In this document: piece by piece, positions 4,609 through 57,598 of the stretch | How the letters are laid out: the number at the start of each line of letters is the position of its first letter | Numbering within the stretch: position 1 is the stretch's first letter | DNA from: Minisyncoccota bacterium | GTDB lineage: Bacteria; Patescibacteriota; Minisyncoccia; Minisyncoccales; JAQTVQ01 | NCBI GenBank assembly: GCA_041657385.1 | Contig: JBBABZ010000001.1 | Span: forward strand, 29,821-93,820 | DNA: 64,000 bases | Direction: 5' to 3' | The notes under the pieces: generated by a model | Told to the model about the DNA's origin: nothing | The model's database searches: none | Seen by the model: the letters and a program-made list of their open reading frames with translations, nothing else | Program-made: the position numbers and the translations under genes

Positions 4609-4710
4609 GCGAAAAGCTAAAAGCGAAAAGTGTAAAATAAACGAACGAATATTTTACGCTTTGCACTTTTGTTTTGCACTTTTCGCTTTACCTGCCTGCC
4701 GGCAGGCAGG
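4609..4710. repeat. Intergenic palindromic element (GCGNAAAG-unit arms) ending in the 20-bp GC palindrome CCTGCCTGCCGGCAGGCAGG (4691-4710)
   Basis: Arms gcgaaaagctaaaagcgaaaagtgtaaaat / attttacgctttgcacttttgttttgcacttttcgcttta are inverted complements. The perfect GC palindrome is at 4691-4710. Confidence 0.8.
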
Positions 4711-4831
4711 CGCTTTCCAAAAATTTAAAGATTAAAATAATAAATAATAATTCCAAAAATCGAACAGCCAGTATCAAATAAATAAACAAAGGTTATTTGA
4801 CATTAGGATTTTGAAATTTGGATTTAAGCAA

Positions 4832-5817: not shown

Positions 5818-5958
5818 GGCAAAACTAGGTAAAGTGAAAAAGCGTAAAGTGCAAAGCGAAAAGCGCAAAACAACAGTGCAAAATTTAAAATATTCGTTCG
5901 CTGTTTTTAGCTTTTCGCTGTTGCTTTACGCTTTGCGCTTTTAGCTTTACGCTTAATC
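5818..5958. repeat. Intergenic palindromic element of the GCGTAAAG/GCGAAAAG-unit family
   Basis: Left arm aaagcgtaaagtgcaaagcgaaaagcgcaaaacaacagtg, centre aaaatttaaaatattcgttcg, right arm ctgtttttagcttttcgctgttgctttacgctttgcgcttttagctttacgctt. The element ends 3 bp before the next ATG. Confidence 0.8.
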
Positions 5959-5961
5959 TCT

Positions 5962-7461
5962 ATGTTATATTCCAAAGACCAAATCAAAAATATCATTCCC
6001 TATGATGACCCCTTCCTTTGGGTCGATGAGATCGAGAAGATCGAAGGCGATACAATTTTCGGTTCCAAGCAAACTTCTCCCCAAGATCCGTATTTCAAGG
6101 GTCATTTCGTTGATTTTCCGATCATGCCGGGCGTTTTGGTCGTAGAAGGGCTTGCCCAAACTGGAACTCTTTTACTTCGCGAAAGGCTTGGCAGCAGCCA
6201 CCAGCAAAAACATATCCTAGCCTATCAAGTAAGAAGCGCTATATTCTATTCGCCGATACTGCCCGGAGACAAGATCAAATACAAGGTCCGATTGCTCGGT
6301 ATATACGGCTCCAAGATCGCCAACTTCGTGGGAGAAGCTTATGTGGCAGATACTTTAAAATGCGAGCTTAGATTTTCAGCGGCCATTCTCGACAAAAAAG
6401 AGATGCAGGAAAAATTCCTGGCCGACAGAACAAATTCCCAGCCGGAAAAGAAAAAACTGTTCGAGCTTCCAGCGCTAAAAGTAGGAAGATTTACCGCAAA
6501 ATTACCGATCATCCAAGGAGGAATGGCTGTCCGCGTTTCCCTTCATAAACTGGCTGGCAATGTCGCCAAAGAAGGCGGGGTAGGAATAATCGCCGTTTCG
6601 GGAATGAAGGATCCGCAGGAAGTAAAAGATGAGATCAGAAAAGCGCGCGCAATTGCCGGAGAAAACGGAGCGATCGGCATCAATATAATGGGAGTTGTCG
6701 GACAATTCAAACAGCTGGTAACCGCGGCGGTTGAAGAAAAAGTCGACCTGATAATCCAGGGAGCGGGATTCCGCACGGACATTTTCGAAATGACCAGGGA
6801 AAGCTCCATCCCCGTTTTCGCCATGGCTTCATCAGCGAAAGTAGCTAAAAGGGCGGAAGAAGCTGGCGCATCGGCCGTTGTTGTTGAGGGTTGCGATGCC
6901 GGCGGCCACCTTGGATTCCCTCATGGACATCCTTTCCGTAAAACCATAGACATCATAAAGGAGGTCGTTAAAGAAGTGCGCATCCCCGTTATCGCCGCTG
7001 GAGGCATTTTTGATGGAAAGGATATTGTAGAAATGTTAAGAGCCGGAGCGAAAGGCATTCAAATGGCGACCCGATTCGTTTCGACCGAAGAATGCGATGC
7101 TGACATAAAATTCAAAGAAGCGCACATCAACGCAAAAAAAGAAGACATCGTTATCATCCATTCGCCAGTGGGCCTGCCCGGCCGAGCGATCAAAACCCCT
7201 TTTGTTGAAAAACTTTTGAAAGGAACTGCGCCCAAGCCCGACCCGATCGAGTGCCAAGGCTGTATAGGACCAGTTTGCGACAAAAGCTATTGCATCCTGA
7301 AAGTACTGGAAAACGCCCGGAAAGGAGACTTGGAAAACGGCCTGGTCTTTGCCGGAGCCAACGTTTGGAGAGTAAACAAAATGACAACGGTCAAAGCTTT
7401 AATAAAAGAACTGGTAGATGAAGCGAATGAAATACTGGCTAAGGAGCCGTTAATATCATAA
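5962..7461 (+). CDS. Fusion protein: N-terminal FabZ-like 3-hydroxyacyl-ACP dehydratase hotdog domain plus C-terminal FabK-like (NMO/nitronate monooxygenase TIM-barrel) enoyl reductase
   Basis: N-terminus PFLWVDEIEKIEGDT...GHFVDFPIMPGVLVVEGLAQ matches the FabZ/FabA signature including the catalytic His. From about residue 175 onward, LPIIQGGMAVRVS...GAGF...VVEGCDAGGHLG is FabK/NPD-like. Confidence 0.7.
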   Translation: MLYSKDQIKNIIPYDDPFLWVDEIEKIEGDTIFGSKQTSPQDPYFKGHFVDFPIMPGVLVVEGLAQTGTLLLRERLGSSHQQKHILAYQVRSAIFYSPILPGDKIKYKVRLLGIYGSKIANFVGEAYVADTLKCELRFSAAILDKKEMQEKFLADRTNSQPEKKKLFELPALKVGRFTAKLPIIQGGMAVRVSLHKLAGNVAKEGGVGIIAVSGMKDPQEVKDEIRKARAIAGENGAIGINIMGVVGQFKQLVTAAVEEKVDLIIQGAGFRTDIFEMTRESSIPVFAMASSAKVAKRAEEAGASAVVVEGCDAGGHLGFPHGHPFRKTIDIIKEVVKEVRIPVIAAGGIFDGKDIVEMLRAGAKGIQMATRFVSTEECDADIKFKEAHINAKKEDIVIIHSPVGLPGRAIKTPFVEKLLKGTAPKPDPIECQGCIGPVCDKSYCILKVLENARKGDLENGLVFAGANVWRVNKMTTVKALIKELVDEANEILAKEPLIS

Positions 7462-7462
7462 A

Positions 7463-7562
7463 TAAAAAGCGTAAAGTGCAAAGCGAAAAGCGCAAAACAA
7501 CAGTGTAAAGCTAAAAGCAACGAACGGATATTTTACACTTTTCGCTTTACGCTTTGCACTTA
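7463..7562. repeat. Intergenic palindromic element of the GCGTAAAG-unit family
   Basis: aaagcgtaaagtgcaaagcgaaaagcgcaaaacaacagtg ... cgaacggatattttacacttttcgctttacgctttgcact is a near-identical left arm to the copy at 5818. Confidence 0.8.
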
Positions 7563-7571
7563 ATATCTCCT

Positions 7572-8510
7572 ATGTTTGAAACTAACAAACTGACACAACT
7601 TCTCGGCATTGAGTATCCCGTCATCCAAGGCGGTATGGCTGGCATTTCCGAATCAAAACTGGTTTCGGCTGTTTCCAATGCCGGAGGATTAGGCACCATT
7701 GGCGCAGGATTGATGCCGGCTTCTTGGGTGGAGCAGGAGATCCAAAAAACCCGCCAGCTGACTTCAAAACCTTTTGCCGTAAATCTTTTTATGCAAAACC
7801 AGAAGATTGAAGAAATAGTCAAAGCCATCATCAAAAATAAAGTTCCGATCGTCTTCATCGGAGGCGGCAATCCGATGCTGGTTATGCCTTATTTAAAAAG
7901 CGCGGGCATCAAAACGATCCCGGTCGTCCCTTCTCCCAGGCTTGCCAAAAAAATGGAAGAAAACGACGCCGACGCAATAGTTGTTGAAGGGGTAGAATCA
8001 GGAGGCCATCTTGGGCCCAACACCACTTTTTGCTTGATCCCGCAAACCGTAGAGCTGGTTAAAAAAATCCCGATTATTGCCGCCGGAGGCATTTTTGACG
8101 GACAAACCGCGGCGATGGCGATGGCTGCCGGAGCTGACGGCGTCCAAATAGGCACCCGCTTTTTGGCCACCCCTGAATGCATCATCTCCCAAAGCTATAA
8201 GCAAAAGATCGTCGACTCTTCAGCCGATGATATTGAAATTGTTCTGGCTTTTACCGGCCATCCCTTGCGCGTGATCAAAAACAAATGGGCCGAAGATATG
8301 AAAAAATTGGAAACAAAAAATGTTTTTCCCGAAGAGTTGAACGCGGGAAAGATCGCCGGATCCCTAGGAGGAGAAAATGTCGATAATATCCCTCTTTTAG
8401 CCGGGCTTTGCGCGGCCAGCATTAAAGATATAAAATCTTGCCAAGCGATCATTGAAGAGATCGCCAGCTCTTTAAAAAAATATGAACAAAGCCGTATCAA
8501 CGATCTGTAA
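7572..8510 (+). CDS. fabK: Enoyl-[ACP] reductase II / nitronate monooxygenase family
   Basis: YPVIQGGMAGISESKLVSAVSNAGGLGTIGAG and VEGVESGGHLG motifs. The first ATG is at 7572. Confidence 0.7.
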   Translation: MFETNKLTQLLGIEYPVIQGGMAGISESKLVSAVSNAGGLGTIGAGLMPASWVEQEIQKTRQLTSKPFAVNLFMQNQKIEEIVKAIIKNKVPIVFIGGGNPMLVMPYLKSAGIKTIPVVPSPRLAKKMEENDADAIVVEGVESGGHLGPNTTFCLIPQTVELVKKIPIIAAGGIFDGQTAAMAMAAGADGVQIGTRFLATPECIISQSYKQKIVDSSADDIEIVLAFTGHPLRVIKNKWAEDMKKLETKNVFPEELNAGKIAGSLGGENVDNIPLLAGLCAASIKDIKSCQAIIEEIASSLKKYEQSRINDL

Positions 8511-14746: not shown

Positions 14747-15427
14747 ATGCCCGCTTCTTATTTTTTAATATCCCTTTTCTCTTACCTGCTCGGTTCAATA
14801 CCGGCCGCTATTTTAATTGGAAAACTTTTCACCAAGAAAAATTTTCAAGAAGAGGGAAGCGGCAATCTTGGCGCCACCAACGCTTTAAGAATCGTCAGCA
14901 AAGAAAAAGGGAAATTCTGGGGAACCGCGGCCTTTCTTGCCGTTTTTCTTTTTGACGCCAGCAAAGCAGTGGCCGCTTGTTTGATCGCAACGAACTTTAT
15001 TCCCGATCGGACCGCAGCTTTAACTCTGGCCGCCTTTTTTACCGTTCTTGGCCATAATTATTCATTGTTTTTAAAATTCCGGGGAGGGAGGGGAGCTGCT
15101 TCCTTGCTTGGCGTCCTCTTATTTTTCGATTGGCGCGTCTTTTTAGCTTGGGTTGGAACTTTTTTGGCCGTAGCCGTTATCTTTGAGGCTGTTGAAAGCA
15201 AAAAAATCGACAAAAAAATAGTGGCCAGAGCCGCTAACCGCCAAATTATCGGCCGTCTTGTTGGAGAGGTCTTAGCCCTTATTCCCATCTACCTTCTCAA
15301 TCAAACTCTTTTTTGGCCAACCCTTTTCGCTACGCCATTGATCCTTATCAAACATAAAGAAAGGGTGAAAAGACAGTTGCAAGAGATAGCTGAAAGCGTA
15401 AAGCTAAAAGCGCAAAGCGTAAAGTAA
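14747..15427 (+). CDS. plsY: Glycerol-3-phosphate acyltransferase
   Basis: LLGSIPAAILIGK and GSGNLGATNALR motifs. Polytopic membrane protein. The C-terminal tail of about 25 aa reads into the repeat element. Confidence 0.8.
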   Translation: MPASYFLISLFSYLLGSIPAAILIGKLFTKKNFQEEGSGNLGATNALRIVSKEKGKFWGTAAFLAVFLFDASKAVAACLIATNFIPDRTAALTLAAFFTVLGHNYSLFLKFRGGRGAASLLGVLLFFDWRVFLAWVGTFLAVAVIFEAVESKKIDKKIVARAANRQIIGRLVGEVLALIPIYLLNQTLFWPTLFATPLILIKHKERVKRQLQEIAESVKLKAQSVK

Positions 15428-15552
15428 CAGCGCCTGCCTGCCGGTAGGCAGGTAAAGCTAAAAGCAACGAACGGATATTTTTAGCTTTACGCTTTTGTTT
15501 TGCGCTTTTCGCTTTGCACTTTACGCTTCCTTGCTTTACGCTTCCTTACGCT
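15405..15552. repeat. Intergenic palindromic element (GCGTAAAG-unit arms) with a central GC palindrome CCTGCCTGCCGGTAGGCAGG (15433-15452)
   Basis: gcgtaaagctaaaagcgcaaagcgtaaagtaacagcg - palindrome - taaagctaaaagcaacgaacggatatttttagctttacgcttttgttttgcgcttttcgctttgcactttacgc. Confidence 0.8.
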
Positions 15553-15599
15553 TTTTTGATTTTTTGACGGTTTTCTGATAAAATAACCCTAGAAATTTC

Positions 15600-45953: not shown

Positions 45954-46709
45954 TTAATTAATTTTTTGTTTTAAACTCCTTTTTAAAACTATAATAATTA
46001 TTCCGTTGAAAATTGCAAGGATAAACGCCCAAACTTTTGTTTTCAAACTGATCATTTGGAAATTCTTGGCACTATTATCCATACTGGCATTAAGATCGGC
46101 AGAGTTAATCGTTTCGATTTTTTCCAGTTTTGCTGATCCAAGCTTAGCTTTTTGGACAACCAAGCTGTTTTGAAATTTAGGCGTGCCCCCGAGGGGAATG
46201 CTCGTTTGCCAGTTGCTGGCGGAGGATCCATCTTTTTCAGGGCTGATCCTTTCCATGGTTTGTTTGGAGACATTGTCGCCGCCAAACCAACCTTGGGAGC
46301 AATCGATTTCGTCAACAAGAATTCCTGCCTTATTATAGAGACCGATTTTTTGCCCCTTATTAACTAAAGAGCCCTTAAAGATCATATCAGCTGGGATATT
46401 TGGTAAAGTTTGGTCGTCAGATCTTTCTAAAAGGTAAAAACCCTTAGCGGGAATCATCCCTTTTAAATTAACCTGAAAAGAGTCTTGGACCATTAAGCTC
46501 CAGCCGTTTAAGTTTATACCATAATTAGCGTTATTGTAAAGCTCCAGCCACTCGTCGCTGGCTGTTTTTTCGGTTCCCATCCAGGACACTTCATTAATTG
46601 CGATTTCTTTATTTTCCGCGGCAGAACATTGAGAAGCCAGGGAAAAAACCCAAGAAGAGAAAACAAAAACCAAGATTAGATCAAGTAAAACTGTTGGTCT
46701 TGCTGCCAT
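45954..46709 (-). CDS. Secreted lamin-tail-domain (LTD) protein
   Basis: Signal peptide, then AINEVSWMGTEKTASDEWLELYN...GWSL...LYNKAGILVDE, characteristic of LTD. Confidence 0.55.
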   Translation of the reverse strand: MAARPTVLLDLILVFVFSSWVFSLASQCSAAENKEIAINEVSWMGTEKTASDEWLELYNNANYGINLNGWSLMVQDSFQVNLKGMIPAKGFYLLERSDDQTLPNIPADMIFKGSLVNKGQKIGLYNKAGILVDEIDCSQGWFGGDNVSKQTMERISPEKDGSSASNWQTSIPLGGTPKFQNSLVVQKAKLGSAKLEKIETINSADLNASMDNSAKNFQMISLKTKVWAFILAIFNGIIIIVLKRSLKQKIN

Positions 46710-47692
46710 TTTATTTTTAGATGGTCATATGCCAGCTTAGTGGCGACGCGGCCCTGGGTTGTCCTTTCGACCAGCCCTAATTGCATTAAATAAGGCTCGT
46801 AGAGATTTAAAATAGTATCTTCTTCTTCTGCCGAGGCCGCGGCCAATGATTTTATCCCTACCGGCCCCCCTTGGAATTTATTGATCAGAATTTCTAAAAG
46901 CCTTCGATCGGACGGTCCCAACCCGATCTCGTCGATCTCTAAAAATCCCAGAGAGCTTTTGACGATTTCTTTAGTGACGATCCCTTGTCCTTCCACTTCG
47001 GCAAAATCGCGGACGCGTTTTAACAAGTTATTGGCTATGCGGGGAGTGAAACGGGAACTGCGGGCTAAAATATACAAAGCGTCAGATTCGATCTTTACCT
47101 TGAGAATGTCGGCTGATCTTTGTAATATTTTTTCCAGCTCCGTCTGCCCGTAAAAATTCAATTGATAAACTCCGCCAAAGCGGCTGCGAAGAGGAGGGGA
47201 GATGAGCCCCACTCTGGTGGTGGCTCCGATCAAGGTGAATTTCGGCAAATTAAGCTCAAGCGTTTTAGCCATCGGGCCCTTGCCAAGAACGATGTTCATT
47301 CTAAAATCTTCAATGGCCGGGTAGAGATATTCTTCAACGGTTTTGCAGATGCGGTGGATCTCATCAATAAATAAAACATCCCCTTCGGAAAGGTTGGTTA
47401 AAAGGGCGGCCAAGTCTCCGATTTTTTCGATGGCTGGACCGGAGGTTGTCTTTATGTTAGAATCTAGCTCCTTAGCAATAAGATAAGCTAGGCTGGTTTT
47501 TCCTAAGCCCGCATTGCCGTAAAAAAGCAGGTGGTCGGGCGGTTCTTTTCGTTTCTTCGCCGCGTCGATCATCACCTTAACATTCTTTTTTATTTTCTCC
47601 TGGCCAATATAATCATTCCAAGCTTGAGGCCTTAAAGTTGAATCTATTTTTTCGTCCACTTCTTCGATTGAGAGTTTTTTCTTGACAGACAT
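46676..47692 (-). CDS. ruvB: Holliday junction branch-migration ATPase RuvB
   Basis: LLFYGNAGLGKTSLA Walker A, DEIHR, and a C-terminal winged helix. Confidence 0.9.
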   Translation of the reverse strand: MSVKKKLSIEEVDEKIDSTLRPQAWNDYIGQEKIKKNVKVMIDAAKKRKEPPDHLLFYGNAGLGKTSLAYLIAKELDSNIKTTSGPAIEKIGDLAALLTNLSEGDVLFIDEIHRICKTVEEYLYPAIEDFRMNIVLGKGPMAKTLELNLPKFTLIGATTRVGLISPPLRSRFGGVYQLNFYGQTELEKILQRSADILKVKIESDALYILARSSRFTPRIANNLLKRVRDFAEVEGQGIVTKEIVKSSLGFLEIDEIGLGPSDRRLLEILINKFQGGPVGIKSLAAASAEEEDTILNLYEPYLMQLGLVERTTQGRVATKLAYDHLKIKWQQDQQFYLI

Positions 47693-47724
47693 TTTGAATT
47701 GTGTTATATTGGGAAAACAAAAAC

Positions 47725-47850
47725 AACTTCTAGACTGGGGGTAGGGATTTCTTCTGATTTGGACAATCTGGATTCGTCTGGGCTGCTCCTCAAAGAAATT
47801 CTGCGCCTTAGTAAGCCTATACTAAAGTCCCCCAGTCCAGGGGTTGTTTT
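47725..47850 (+). ncRNA. Candidate structured small RNA of unknown family
   Basis: In a 170-bp intergenic gap, GACTGGGGG (47732-47740) pairs with CCCCCAGTC (47830-47838) to enclose about 90 nt with internal hairpins. It is followed by CAGGGGTTGTTTTTTT (47839-47854). Confidence 0.3.
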
Positions 47851-47862
47851 TTTATATAAAAA

Positions 47863-49158
47863 CTAACCGACCGCTTTTTCTATCTCTTCGATAGTGGTTG
47901 ATCCTTCTAAGACCTTTAAAAATCCGTCTGTTTTCATCGGGATCATCCCTTTTTCTTTAGCTTTTTTGGCTAGCTCAGAGATAGTGGGGTTAATGGCTAT
48001 GAAGTTTTCCAGCTCGCTATCCATTTTAATAGCTTCGTATATGCCGATCCGGCCCTTGTATCCGGTAGAATTACAGTATTCGCAGCCCTTTGGTTCATAA
48101 ACAACAAGGTCTTCTGTTTTTGGATAGTTTTTAAGGACCTCTGCTGGAGCGTCTTTCAGAAATTCTTCCACCTTTTTAATTTCTTCCGGAGCGGCCGGCC
48201 GAGGCTCTGCGCATTTTTTGCAAATTTTTCTAACCAGTCTTTGGGCAATGATCAAATTGATAGCCGGCCCAATGTTGTAAGCCTTTACTTCCATGCTGGT
48301 CAAACGGGAGATAGTGCCGGCGGCATTGTTCGTGTGTAGAGTGCTGAAAACCAAATGTCCGGTCAAGGAAGCTTGAAGGGATATCTCGGCAGTCTCCAAA
48401 TCTCTTATTTCTCCGACCAGTATGACGTCGGGGTCCTGCCTCACGATCGATTTCAGGCCGGAAGCGAAGTCATAGCCTTTTTCCGGAGCTACCTGCGTTT
48501 GGGAAATATCGTCTAAATGGTATTCGATCGGATCTTCAATGGTAATGATCTTAATTTCAGGATCCCTTATCTTTTTTAAAAAGGCGTAAAGGGTGGTTGT
48601 TTTTCCTGATCCTGTCGGTCCGGTAACGATGATCATTCCGTTGGGTTTTTTGATCTCTTTAGTAAATATCTCATAAAGATCGTTTCTTAACCCAAGGTCT
48701 TCCAAACTGATCAAACTTTTCGGATTTAAAATTCTTAAGACAGCCGTTTCGCCGTATTGAGTGGGGAGGGTTGAGGATCTTATCTCTATCTCAAGGTCGG
48801 GCAGAGAGATCGAGAACCGTCCATCTTGAGGTTTGTCTTCAATGTTGAGCTTGAGCCCGGATAAGAGCTTGATCCTTGAAGTCAATAAAGCCTGTTTTTC
48901 AGGTTCGAAAATTATAACATCATGCAGGCAGCCGTCTAATCTGACCCTTAATTTGGCTTGTTTCTCTTGGGCTTCCAAATGCAAGTCGGAGCAGCCGAGA
49001 GAGATGGCCCCGGCTAAAATAGTTTTCAGGATAGAAGAAGTATCTTTTTCCAGCGATGCGTTAATAGATCCTTGGAAATCAGTTAAATTTTTGACTTCAA
49101 TGTCCACTTGGTCCAAGAGGTCTTTTTCGATTTGAATTTTTCCGCTGATTTGCTGCAT
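47863..49158 (-). CDS. Type II/IV secretion-system ATPase (PilB/GspE family), short form lacking the N-terminal domain
   Basis: Walker A TGPTGSGKTT, the VGEIRD Asp box, and a C-terminal zinc-binding CEYC...C. Confidence 0.8.
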   Translation of the reverse strand: MQQISGKIQIEKDLLDQVDIEVKNLTDFQGSINASLEKDTSSILKTILAGAISLGCSDLHLEAQEKQAKLRVRLDGCLHDVIIFEPEKQALLTSRIKLLSGLKLNIEDKPQDGRFSISLPDLEIEIRSSTLPTQYGETAVLRILNPKSLISLEDLGLRNDLYEIFTKEIKKPNGMIIVTGPTGSGKTTTLYAFLKKIRDPEIKIITIEDPIEYHLDDISQTQVAPEKGYDFASGLKSIVRQDPDVILVGEIRDLETAEISLQASLTGHLVFSTLHTNNAAGTISRLTSMEVKAYNIGPAINLIIAQRLVRKICKKCAEPRPAAPEEIKKVEEFLKDAPAEVLKNYPKTEDLVVYEPKGCEYCNSTGYKGRIGIYEAIKMDSELENFIAINPTISELAKKAKEKGMIPMKTDGFLKVLEGSTTIEEIEKAVG

Positions 49159-50364: not shown

Positions 50365-50892
50365 TTGGGAAATGAGTCTGACTCTGCAGAAAAATTGATG
50401 GAAATACAAACGACCGGGTATAAAAAAACTCAAGAACTTGGCAATATTTTTGCCCAGGAAATTTTAAGGAAGGGGCCGCAGGAAAAAGCGGTCGTTCTAG
50501 CATTATCTGGCGACCTGGGAGGAGGGAAAACCACTTTTTCCCAGGGTTTTGCGAAGGGGCTGGGAGTCAAAAATAGAATAACAAGCCCCACCTTTACGAT
50601 TTTTAAAAGGTTTAAGATCAGTTTGGTCCGCGGCAGGGTTCCTCAAAAAATAGATTTTGAAAGTTTTTATCATTTCGATTGTTATCGGCTTTTGGGGCCG
50701 AAAGATATTTTAGAGTTGGGATTTAAGGAGATTGTTTCATCCCCTAAAAATATTATTTTACTGGAATGGGCGGAAAGAGTTAAGAAGGTATTGCCGAAAG
50801 AAACCATCTGGCTGAATTTTGACTTTGTGAGCCCGAACAAAAGGAAGATCGTGTTAAGCGAAAAGCGCAAAGCGAAAAGCGCAAAACAATAG
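50365..50892 (+). CDS. tsaE: tRNA threonylcarbamoyladenosine biosynthesis protein TsaE
   Basis: LSGDLGGGKTTFSQG P-loop, SPTFTI, and HFDCYRL. Confidence 0.75.
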   Translation: MGNESDSAEKLMEIQTTGYKKTQELGNIFAQEILRKGPQEKAVVLALSGDLGGGKTTFSQGFAKGLGVKNRITSPTFTIFKRFKISLVRGRVPQKIDFESFYHFDCYRLLGPKDILELGFKEIVSSPKNIILLEWAERVKKVLPKETIWLNFDFVSPNKRKIVLSEKRKAKSAKQ

Positions 50893-50975
50893 CGCCTGCC
50901 TGCCGGTAGGCAGGTAAAGTTTAAAATATCCGTTTGTTGCTTTACGCTTTTCGCTTTTAGCTTTACGCTTAACAA
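50857..50975. repeat. Intergenic palindromic element (GCGAAAAG-unit arms) with a central GC palindrome CCTGCCTGCCGGTAGGCAGG (50895-50914)
   Basis: gcgaaaagcgcaaagcgaaaagcgcaaaacaatagcg - palindrome - taaagtttaaaatatccgtttgttgctttacgcttttcgcttttagctttacgctt. The left arm encodes the C-terminal tail of TsaE. Confidence 0.8.
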
Positions 50976-57445: not shown

Positions 57446-57598
57446 TAGCATAAATGCGTGAAAGCGTAAAGTGAAAAGCGAAAAGCGTAAAACAAAAGCG
57501 TAAAATTTAAAATATTCGCTTCTTCGTCATTCGTTGCTTTTAGCTTTACGCTGTTATTTTACGCTTTGCTTTTTTAGCTTTACGCTTTTAGGGAAGAT
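57446..57598. repeat. Intergenic palindromic element of the GCGTAAAG-unit family
   Basis: gcgtgaaagcgtaaagtgaaaagcgaaaagcgtaaaacaaaagcgtaaaatttaaaatattcg ... gcttttagctttacgctgttattttacgctttgcttttttagctttacgcttttag. Confidence 0.8.

Follow-up and report, generated by a model that had tools for sequence, protein, structure and literature searches.

What occupies the gap between ruvB and pilB (47693–47862), two minus-strand genes in the 64-kb window analysed here (the whole stretch of DNA, to which all positions refer)? By the affinity of its RuvB, the window belongs to Candidatus Paceibacterota, within the CPR/Patescibacteria. CPR bacteria account for a large part of bacterial diversity and have tiny genomes, and to our knowledge almost no lineage-specific non-coding RNAs are known from them; the literature on CPR, Patescibacteria and Parcubacteria non-coding RNAs and on the ruvB/pilB locus yielded no relevant description. 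A first-pass annotation had proposed that the gap holds a stand-alone, terminator-ended small structured RNA, either a housekeeping RNA (SRP RNA or 6S-like) or the representative of a novel family. By comparative analysis we show that 47717–47853 (+) is an independent gene, with predicted ends, for a putative non-coding and highly structured RNA of ~135 nt, and that this RNA is the local member of a conserved Paceibacterota (CPR) family that is absent from Rfam 15 and apparently undescribed. To the whole of our explanation, in which an independent gene of a conserved family is joined to a proposed protein-docking role in trans, we assign a probability of about 0.6.

A closed, multi-hairpin RNA is predicted in the ruvB-pilB gap

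The plus strand of the gap folds at −54.2 kcal/mol (z = −4.0), a value that none of 200 shuffled sequences equalled, while the minus strand folds less well (−47.5 kcal/mol). The predicted RNA lies opposite in orientation to both ruvB and pilB, and is single-copy within the window; its parts are listed in Table 1. The 9-bp long-range stem seen in the first pass is present, with complementary halves GACTGGGGG (47733–47741) and CCCCCAGTC (47829–47837), but it forms only the inner end of a longer closing helix of 23 bp, P1, whose 23-nt arms were found by the repeat finder to be 87% complementary and 87 nt apart. Further hairpins suspected inside this stem were recovered by the fold as a long P3a/P3b hairpin tipped by UUCG and a smaller one, P4, which corresponds to the variable module of the family described below. 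P1 is joined to P3a by 2 nt. The P3b core reads GGA-N5-UGG-N-UUCG-N-CUG-N5-C-UCC-UC, with the tip at 47773–47776 and a bulged C at 47786, and contains a tandem U·G/G·U. A run of seven T had been noted behind a separate G-rich hairpin. The T run is real; the hairpin is better read as outer P1, in which AGGGG (47839–47843) pairs with CUUCU (47727–47731) via G·U, and this pairing covaries across the family. The terminator scan also called a CCCC..GGGG hairpin here. Within P1 of the window, A47732 stands opposite C47838 as an A·C mismatch.

Table 1. Parts of the RNA gene and its flanking genes, in window positions
Feature	Position	Strand	Basis or remark
Predicted RNA	47717..47853	+	Start set by position of the −10 element, end by the U-run (both inferred)
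−35 hexamer TTGACA	47682..47687	+	Promoter scan; within the first ruvB codons of the other strand
Extended −10 element TGtTATATT	47702..47710	+	Promoter scan
P1 5' arm AAAAACAACUUCUAGACUGGGGG	47719..47741	+	Repeat finder, fold; covaries across the family
P3a 5' strand GGGAUUUCUU	47744..47753	+	Fold, family alignment, covariation
Asymmetric internal loop, 5' side, CUGAUUU	47754..47760	+	UAGNNNN in most relatives
P3b conserved hairpin core	47761..47791	+	Fold, family alignment, covariation
P3a 3' strand AAGAAAUUCU	47793..47802	+	Fold, family alignment, covariation
P4 small hairpin, UUAGUA / UACUAA plus two closing pairs	47805..47828	+	Fold
P1 3' arm CCCCCAGUCCAGGGGUUGUUUUU, also terminator stem	47829..47851	+	Repeat finder, fold, covariation
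T7 run, terminator tail	47847..47853	+	Sequence, terminator scan
ruvB, divergent neighbour	46676..47692	-	RuvB_N, AAA_lid_4 and RuvB_C domains
pilB / GspE-type (T2SSE) ATPase, convergent neighbour	47863..49158	-	Stop codon ~10 nt from the RNA 3' end

The RNA promoter is interlocked with the start of ruvB

Upstream of P1 the promoter scan called TTGACA-17-TGtTATATT (47682–47710, +), a near-consensus extended −10 promoter of the sigma-70 type that scores 11/12 with the TG extension and places the predicted RNA start ~2 nt before P1. The boundaries first assigned to the element, 47725–47855, are therefore slightly short on the 5' side: the RNA is predicted to start at ~47717, and its promoter reaches back to 47682. 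Two sites in the 64-kb window combine TTGACA with a TG-extended −10 element at a score of at least 11/12. Because the only other one drives rpmH-rnpA, the RNA promoter would belong to the strongest class used by this genome. That second site reads into the rpmH (L34)-rnpA operon (38045–37478, minus strand). Its −10 element is followed after 7–8 nt by the rpmH ATG, so that the mRNA seems to lack a leader, and the rnpA gene points to a conventional RNase P RNA encoded elsewhere in this genome.

The ruvB start codon (47690–47692) sits 3 nt from the −35 hexamer of the RNA. No Shine-Dalgarno sequence was found upstream of this codon, and the promoter scan called nothing of the sigma-70 type for ruvB on the minus strand. 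A −10-like TATAAC on the minus strand (47708–47703) overlaps the TATATT of the RNA (47705–47710), and the predicted plus- and minus-strand starts fall ~20 bp apart, leaving ruvB essentially without a leader. Bidirectional promoters with symmetric −10 elements are an established concept in bacteria, and the arrangement here resembles them in its overlapping, opposed −10 elements, its close predicted starts and its nearly leaderless divergent gene. It differs from them in that one arm drives a conserved structured RNA and in that the minus-strand element, which the scan did not call, is putative. Overlapping −10 elements serving as a bidirectional promoter, with a near-leaderless ruvB mRNA, are thus possible. 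Because the −35 hexamer is embedded in the opening codons of the divergent gene, an RNA polymerase occupying the strong RNA promoter probably competes with initiation at the ruvB operon.

The genes around the RNA encode RuvC, YebC, an LTD (lamin-tail-domain) protein, RuvB and PilB. The last 34 nt of ruvB (46676–46709) are shared with the beginning of the next ORF, which encodes the LTD-domain protein (45954–46709), an overlap that suggests translational coupling in a ruvB-LTD-yebC-ruvC operon.

The RNA belongs to a family with two groups

Conservation in related genomes, one of the checks named in the first-pass annotation, was borne out: the RNA or a variant of it was present at 21 of 24 Paceibacterota-like ruvB loci, and in all 21 a strong promoter divergent from ruvB precedes a structured RNA that has a long closing stem and ends in a U-run. 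In the two closest genomes, whose RuvB is 94% and 87% identical to that of the window, the RNA is 96.5% and 93.4% identical. Compensatory changes are already visible at this distance, with A47765-U47784 replaced by G-C in P3b of one relative (L002) and U47809-A47824 replaced by A-U in P4 of another (L001).

The loci found through ruvB split into group A, to which the window belongs, and group B. Group B RNAs have another P1 sequence and a longer, variable hairpin tip, and share the identical frame GGA-N5-UGG...CUG-N5-N-UCC, the N positions of which covary. On the strength of their common position, orientation and P3b frame, the two groups are taken to be homologous. The group B members (L003–L007, L009–L013 and L015–L017) all lie upstream of ruvB. 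Their P1 is highly conserved (CAUAAAUCUCUAAGCAAUC / GAUUGCUUAGAGAUUUAUG), and they have an extra 5' hairpin, a P3b tip of variable length and often a 5' leader of 40–130 nt; a C·U mismatch and a bulged A occupy the place where group A has a pair and a bulged C. CUCCUC as a family-wide anti-Shine-Dalgarno mimic was considered and rejected, because the group B sequence is AUCCU and because the UCC is engaged in pairing.

Metagenome contigs scanned with the group-A core pattern gave at least 119 loci, one of them an evident false positive inside a GC-rich coding region; the same pattern had no match in viral contigs. Together with the genome loci, the metagenome matches listed provided 91 unique full-length RNAs of 110–195 nt (median 153). 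The common plan of these 91 RNAs, among the matches listed, comprises P1, an optional P2 hairpin, P3a, an asymmetric loop, P3b, one or two variable hairpins and the 3' arm of P1. P1 measures 15–34 bp and is variable in its outer part, while its inner part is conserved as C-U-G-N-G-G-G / C-C-C-N-C-A-G, often preceded by an A·C or C·A mismatch. The P1-P3a junction has 0–4 nt on the 5' strand in most of the 91 members listed, the asymmetric loop sets UAGNNNN opposite UC, and P3b carries the bulged C, the tandem U·G/G·U and a UNCG tip. In the window, 47744–47802 fits exactly the group-A frame, in which P3a flanks the P3b core GGA-N5-UGG-N-UNCG-N-CUG-N5-C-UCC-UC; P1 has the inner motif as CUGGGGG / CCCCCAG followed by the T7 run; and the group-A context, a TTGACA / extended −10 promoter with ruvB (or the next operon gene) divergent and pilB convergent, is present.

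A covariance model, R1, was built from a linker-free pseudo-alignment; it recognises the P3 domain only (~30–36 bits) and cannot span the variable insert of 13–90 nt to P1. R1 matches the window at 47734–47812 (30 bits, E 1.6e-4), and its search left group B undetected. One locus (L030 1711–1771, minus strand; contig QYPD01000013.1), binned as 'Spirochaetia bacterium', has a Paceibacterota-type RNA upstream of its RuvB, which shares 54% identity with that of the window, and the contig is probably mis-binned CPR DNA.

Covariation supports the fold on the plus strand

Plain MAFFT alignment of nine group-A RNAs aligned only the core, and a segment-anchored alignment, A2, was therefore used (64 sequences, 98 columns, 44 pairs). 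Standard pairs fill 94.5% of the A2 cells, versus 75.4% after shuffling and 37–53% with partners slid, the observed percentage being inflated because the P1 and P3a registers were chosen for each sequence by the helix finder. None of 500 shuffles reached any of the observed measures. Changes on both sides occur in 34 of the 44 pairs, in a set in which 21 fixed pattern positions cannot vary. As the metagenome pattern fixes these 21 core positions, their invariance, including that of the tandem G·U and of CUCCUC, is by construction, and the independent view of it comes from the smaller, ruvB-found set only. Two lines of evidence are free of the helix-finder bias. The N positions of the fixed P3b frame, which were not fitted, show three to six pair types each, and a MAFFT plus RNAalifold run on 14 real sequences recovered P1, P3a and P3b independently, with 31 of 44 pairs compensatory.

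G·U cells outnumber A·C cells by 537 to 101, or by 367 to 101 without the two forced wobble columns, and the plus strand is therefore the strand selected as RNA. A minus-strand reading was rejected: its fold is weaker, and the G·U pairs would become C·A mismatches in it. Since homologous RNAs with compensatory changes occur at more than 100 other loci, the element is far beyond chance. Its own promoter, an end formed by a helix and U-run, an orientation opposite to both neighbours and this covariation together bear out the proposal of a stand-alone, terminator-ended small RNA.

An A·C or C·A opposition recurs in P1, 8–9 bp from the junction (A2 columns 10/89). C·A was seen in P1 of 28 of 85 sequences among the matches listed, and the window has its A·C one position further out. 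It may mark a determinant for RNase III, or else a position where pairing is possible on the opposite strand alone.

The gene keeps its position and survives the loss of ruvB

When neighbours were examined with the RNA alone as the probe, a divergent ruvB was present no more than 500 nt upstream in 92 of the 104 loci that could be tested, and a convergent pilB no more than 600 nt downstream in 84 of 89 loci, in both cases among the matches listed. The promoter is similarly constant. Among the matches listed, 88 of 91 unique family RNAs have one scoring at least 9/12, with a mean −35 score of 5.81/6, the TG extension in 77 of 91, and a −10 element that ends a median of 10 nt before P1.

In ~12% of the loci among the matches listed (L085, L133, L156, L086, L123 and L149, for example), ruvB is absent upstream of the RNA. 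Where it is missing, the LTD gene, which follows ruvB in the window, adjoins the RNA and is followed by YebC, with the LTD start codon again inside the RNA promoter. The first LTD codons (M-x-x-L-S-R; TTGTCA, the complement of TGACAA) encode the −35 hexamer of the RNA. As the RNA and its promoter persist beside the next gene, the RNA survives the loss of ruvB and the interlocked divergent arrangement is kept.

A protein-docking role in trans is favoured over a purely cis effect

In the mechanism that we propose, P1 and the U-run would act as an intrinsic terminator, and P1 would seal both ends of the RNA against exonucleases to give a stable and abundant molecule. The part constrained in sequence appears to be the inner 8 bp of P1, the junction and the bulged, tandem-G·U P3b, which may together form a docking surface for a protein. 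Because no conserved single-stranded seed is present, we favour a role in trans as a subunit or decoy of a ribonucleoprotein over pairing with mRNAs, and the RNA is probably protein-binding. The variable outer P1, a perfect duplex of 15–34 bp, may be an RNase III processing stem. We put forward more tentatively a wider picture, possible but on balance doubtful, in which the RNA would be the subunit of a housekeeping RNP, made from a promoter of the strongest class, with a shared bidirectional promoter inversely coupling RNA output and Holliday-junction repair. If true, this would be a clade-wide Paceibacterota RNP comparable in rank to 6S, SRP or Y RNAs.

The main alternative is that the element acts mainly in cis, as an antisense RNA, a source of transcriptional interference and an insulator for a pilB -> ruvB transcription unit, and we judge it unlikely. 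On this view, mRNA reading through from pilB into ruvB would be cut or silenced by convergent transcription and by forming a perfect duplex with the RNA; the strong promoter would block initiation at the ruvB operon, and stabilising the RNA would be the sole purpose of its internal structure. Such a role would suit the tight synteny with ruvB and pilB (92/104 and 84/89 among the matches listed) and a −35 hexamer that overlaps the opening codons of the divergent gene even at loci with LTD in place of ruvB. It would also suit a ruvB with neither a called minus-strand sigma-70-like promoter nor a Shine-Dalgarno sequence, and the C·A mismatch in P1 (28/85, among the matches listed) becomes a U·G pair on the minus strand. 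What a cis effect leaves unexplained is the fixed P3b frame common to groups A and B across RuvB identities of 50–60%, as well as the conserved sequence of inner P1. The large excess of G·U over A·C indicates a fold optimised for the plus-strand transcript, and the A-runs before P1, which would form a terminator tail on the minus strand, are unconserved (at least five A in 8 nt in 16 of 91 RNAs among the matches listed). The conservation of P3b and the plus-strand wobbles thus argue against a cis effect as the whole story.

The RNA matches no known family

Of the identities first suggested for the RNA, the novel family stands, while SRP RNA and a 6S-like RNA fall away, as Rfam 15 has no match and the defining features are absent. 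The Rfam search, likewise named as a check in the first pass, matched no known family in the gap. At the gathering score, Rfam 15 found two tRNAs only in the whole window, and at E≤10 a search of 47600–47950 (351 nt) gave no SRP, 6S, Y RNA or tmRNA match and nothing meaningful. Searches of relatives (19 at the gathering score and 10 at E≤10) and of 11 metagenomic loci at the gathering score returned tRNAs and chance matches only. A RAGATH-25 match was dismissed, having 13.5 bits against a gathering score of 49 and consisting of a 20-nt chance match to the CCCC/GGGG segment.

A highly divergent form of a known housekeeping RNA (a 6S-like decoy, SRP 4.5S or Y RNA) that the models miss in CPR would share the size of 110–195 nt (median 153, among the matches listed), the paired ends, a promoter matching a ribosomal-protein operon's in strength and a single copy per locus. 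Rfam also gave no 6S or SRP match in ~0.4 Mb of Paceibacterota DNA, so that these roles are not visibly filled there. We nevertheless regard this explanation as improbable, since no model matches even at E≤10 on a search space of 351 nt, and since the GNAR tetraloop and domain-IV loops of SRP RNA, the large central bubble of 6S and a Ro/Rsr-like neighbour are lacking.

6S RNA is abundant and independently transcribed, and its ends are paired in a long closing stem. The RNA described here resembles 6S (SsrS; RF00013) in its length, which is 130–190 nt in 6S, its paired ends and its second long, irregular helix with a hairpin tip, and both are single-copy with a conserved gene context. The centre is where they part: in place of the large central bubble, the RNA has a 3- or 4-way junction with hairpins, and its P1 is a perfect or near-perfect duplex whereas the 6S helix is broken by bulges. 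6S was therefore rejected, on the lack of a model match in the window or its relatives and of a large, 5'-single-stranded central bubble; an uninterrupted P1 and a junction of 0–4 nt in most members leave no place for a bubble of the 6S type.

SRP 4.5S RNA (Bacteria_small_SRP) is also small, stable and dominated by a hairpin, and it too combines an asymmetric internal loop with a tetraloop at the tip. It has a GNAR tetraloop and conserved symmetric and asymmetric loops in domain IV (..GGAAG.AGCA..), whereas the tip here is UUCG/UNCG, with neither a GNAR tetraloop nor the domain-IV loops. Neither Bacteria_small_SRP nor Bacteria_large_SRP matched, the region contains no domain-IV string, and a regular expression for the domain-IV motif had no match in 1.18 Mb of collected loci, which at less than two genome equivalents is too little to be informative.

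Y RNAs have a terminal stem formed from both ends, a conserved inner helix, a variable multi-hairpin module and a U-rich tail. Y RNA/YrlA and the present RNA are alike in the variable outer stem, the mismatch or bulge, the conserved inner helix beside variable hairpins and the U-rich 3' tail, and unlike in the sequence of the conserved helix and in the tRNA-like module, which is absent here. Y RNA/YrlA was rejected in view of the missing Rfam match, the lack of a tRNA-like module by ARAGORN and the lack of an adjacent rsr (Ro) gene, no Ro/Rsr-like protein being encoded among the seven flanking ORFs scanned. ARAGORN found no tRNA or tmRNA gene in 47500–48000, and tmRNA, which is defined by a tRNA-like domain and a tag reading frame, was discarded on this result and for want of an Rfam match.

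Other candidates were set aside on context. A retron msr-msd RNA is disfavoured by the downstream gene, a convergent T2SSE/PilB ATPase in 84 of 89 loci among the matches listed and not a co-oriented reverse transcriptase. A riboswitch or cis-regulatory leader would have a co-oriented downstream gene, which is absent, and a P1 of 15–34 bp would be too stable for a switch. A simple intrinsic terminator, a short G+C-rich hairpin with a loop of 3–8 nt before a U-run, would account for the U-run, yet the helix encloses 87 nt of covarying structure and the element has its own promoter.

That the element is not an RNA gene at all, but a bidirectional terminator, DNA palindrome, riboswitch or leader, mobile inverted-repeat element or small protein gene, is highly improbable. 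In its favour are terminator-like hairpin calls on either strand, arms that form inverted repeats and a 55-aa plus-strand ORF (47699–47866) that spans the region, but the helix encloses 87 nt that are conserved and covary, the G·U pairs would be mismatches in DNA, no co-oriented downstream gene is there to be regulated, the element occurs once in the window, invariably occupies this locus and has no match in viral contigs, and the ORF is non-coding because a 2-nt indel in L002 shifts its frame.

Significance and other repeats in the window

This compact RNA, with covariation of textbook quality, is present in over 100 independent environmental genomes and in most of them at the same site, and selection has clearly kept it in genomes that shed much else. 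It offers a concrete target for metatranscriptomics, for pull-downs in the few co-cultures that can be grown and for structural biology, and a covariance model of it would improve the annotation of thousands of MAGs. If a protein partner exists, the RNA defines a new RNP; if it is cis-acting, it represents an unusually conserved promoter interlock controlling a DNA-repair operon.

The window also contains long imperfect palindromes at 4613–4716, 5833–5961, 7449–7586, 15388–15554, 50852–50974 and 57461–57589. They are built of tandem AAAGCG / AAAGTG / AAAGCT units and their complements, several with an inner GCCTGCCTGCCGGTAGGCAGG mini-palindrome, and the six sites look like a lineage-specific REP-like or terminator repeat.
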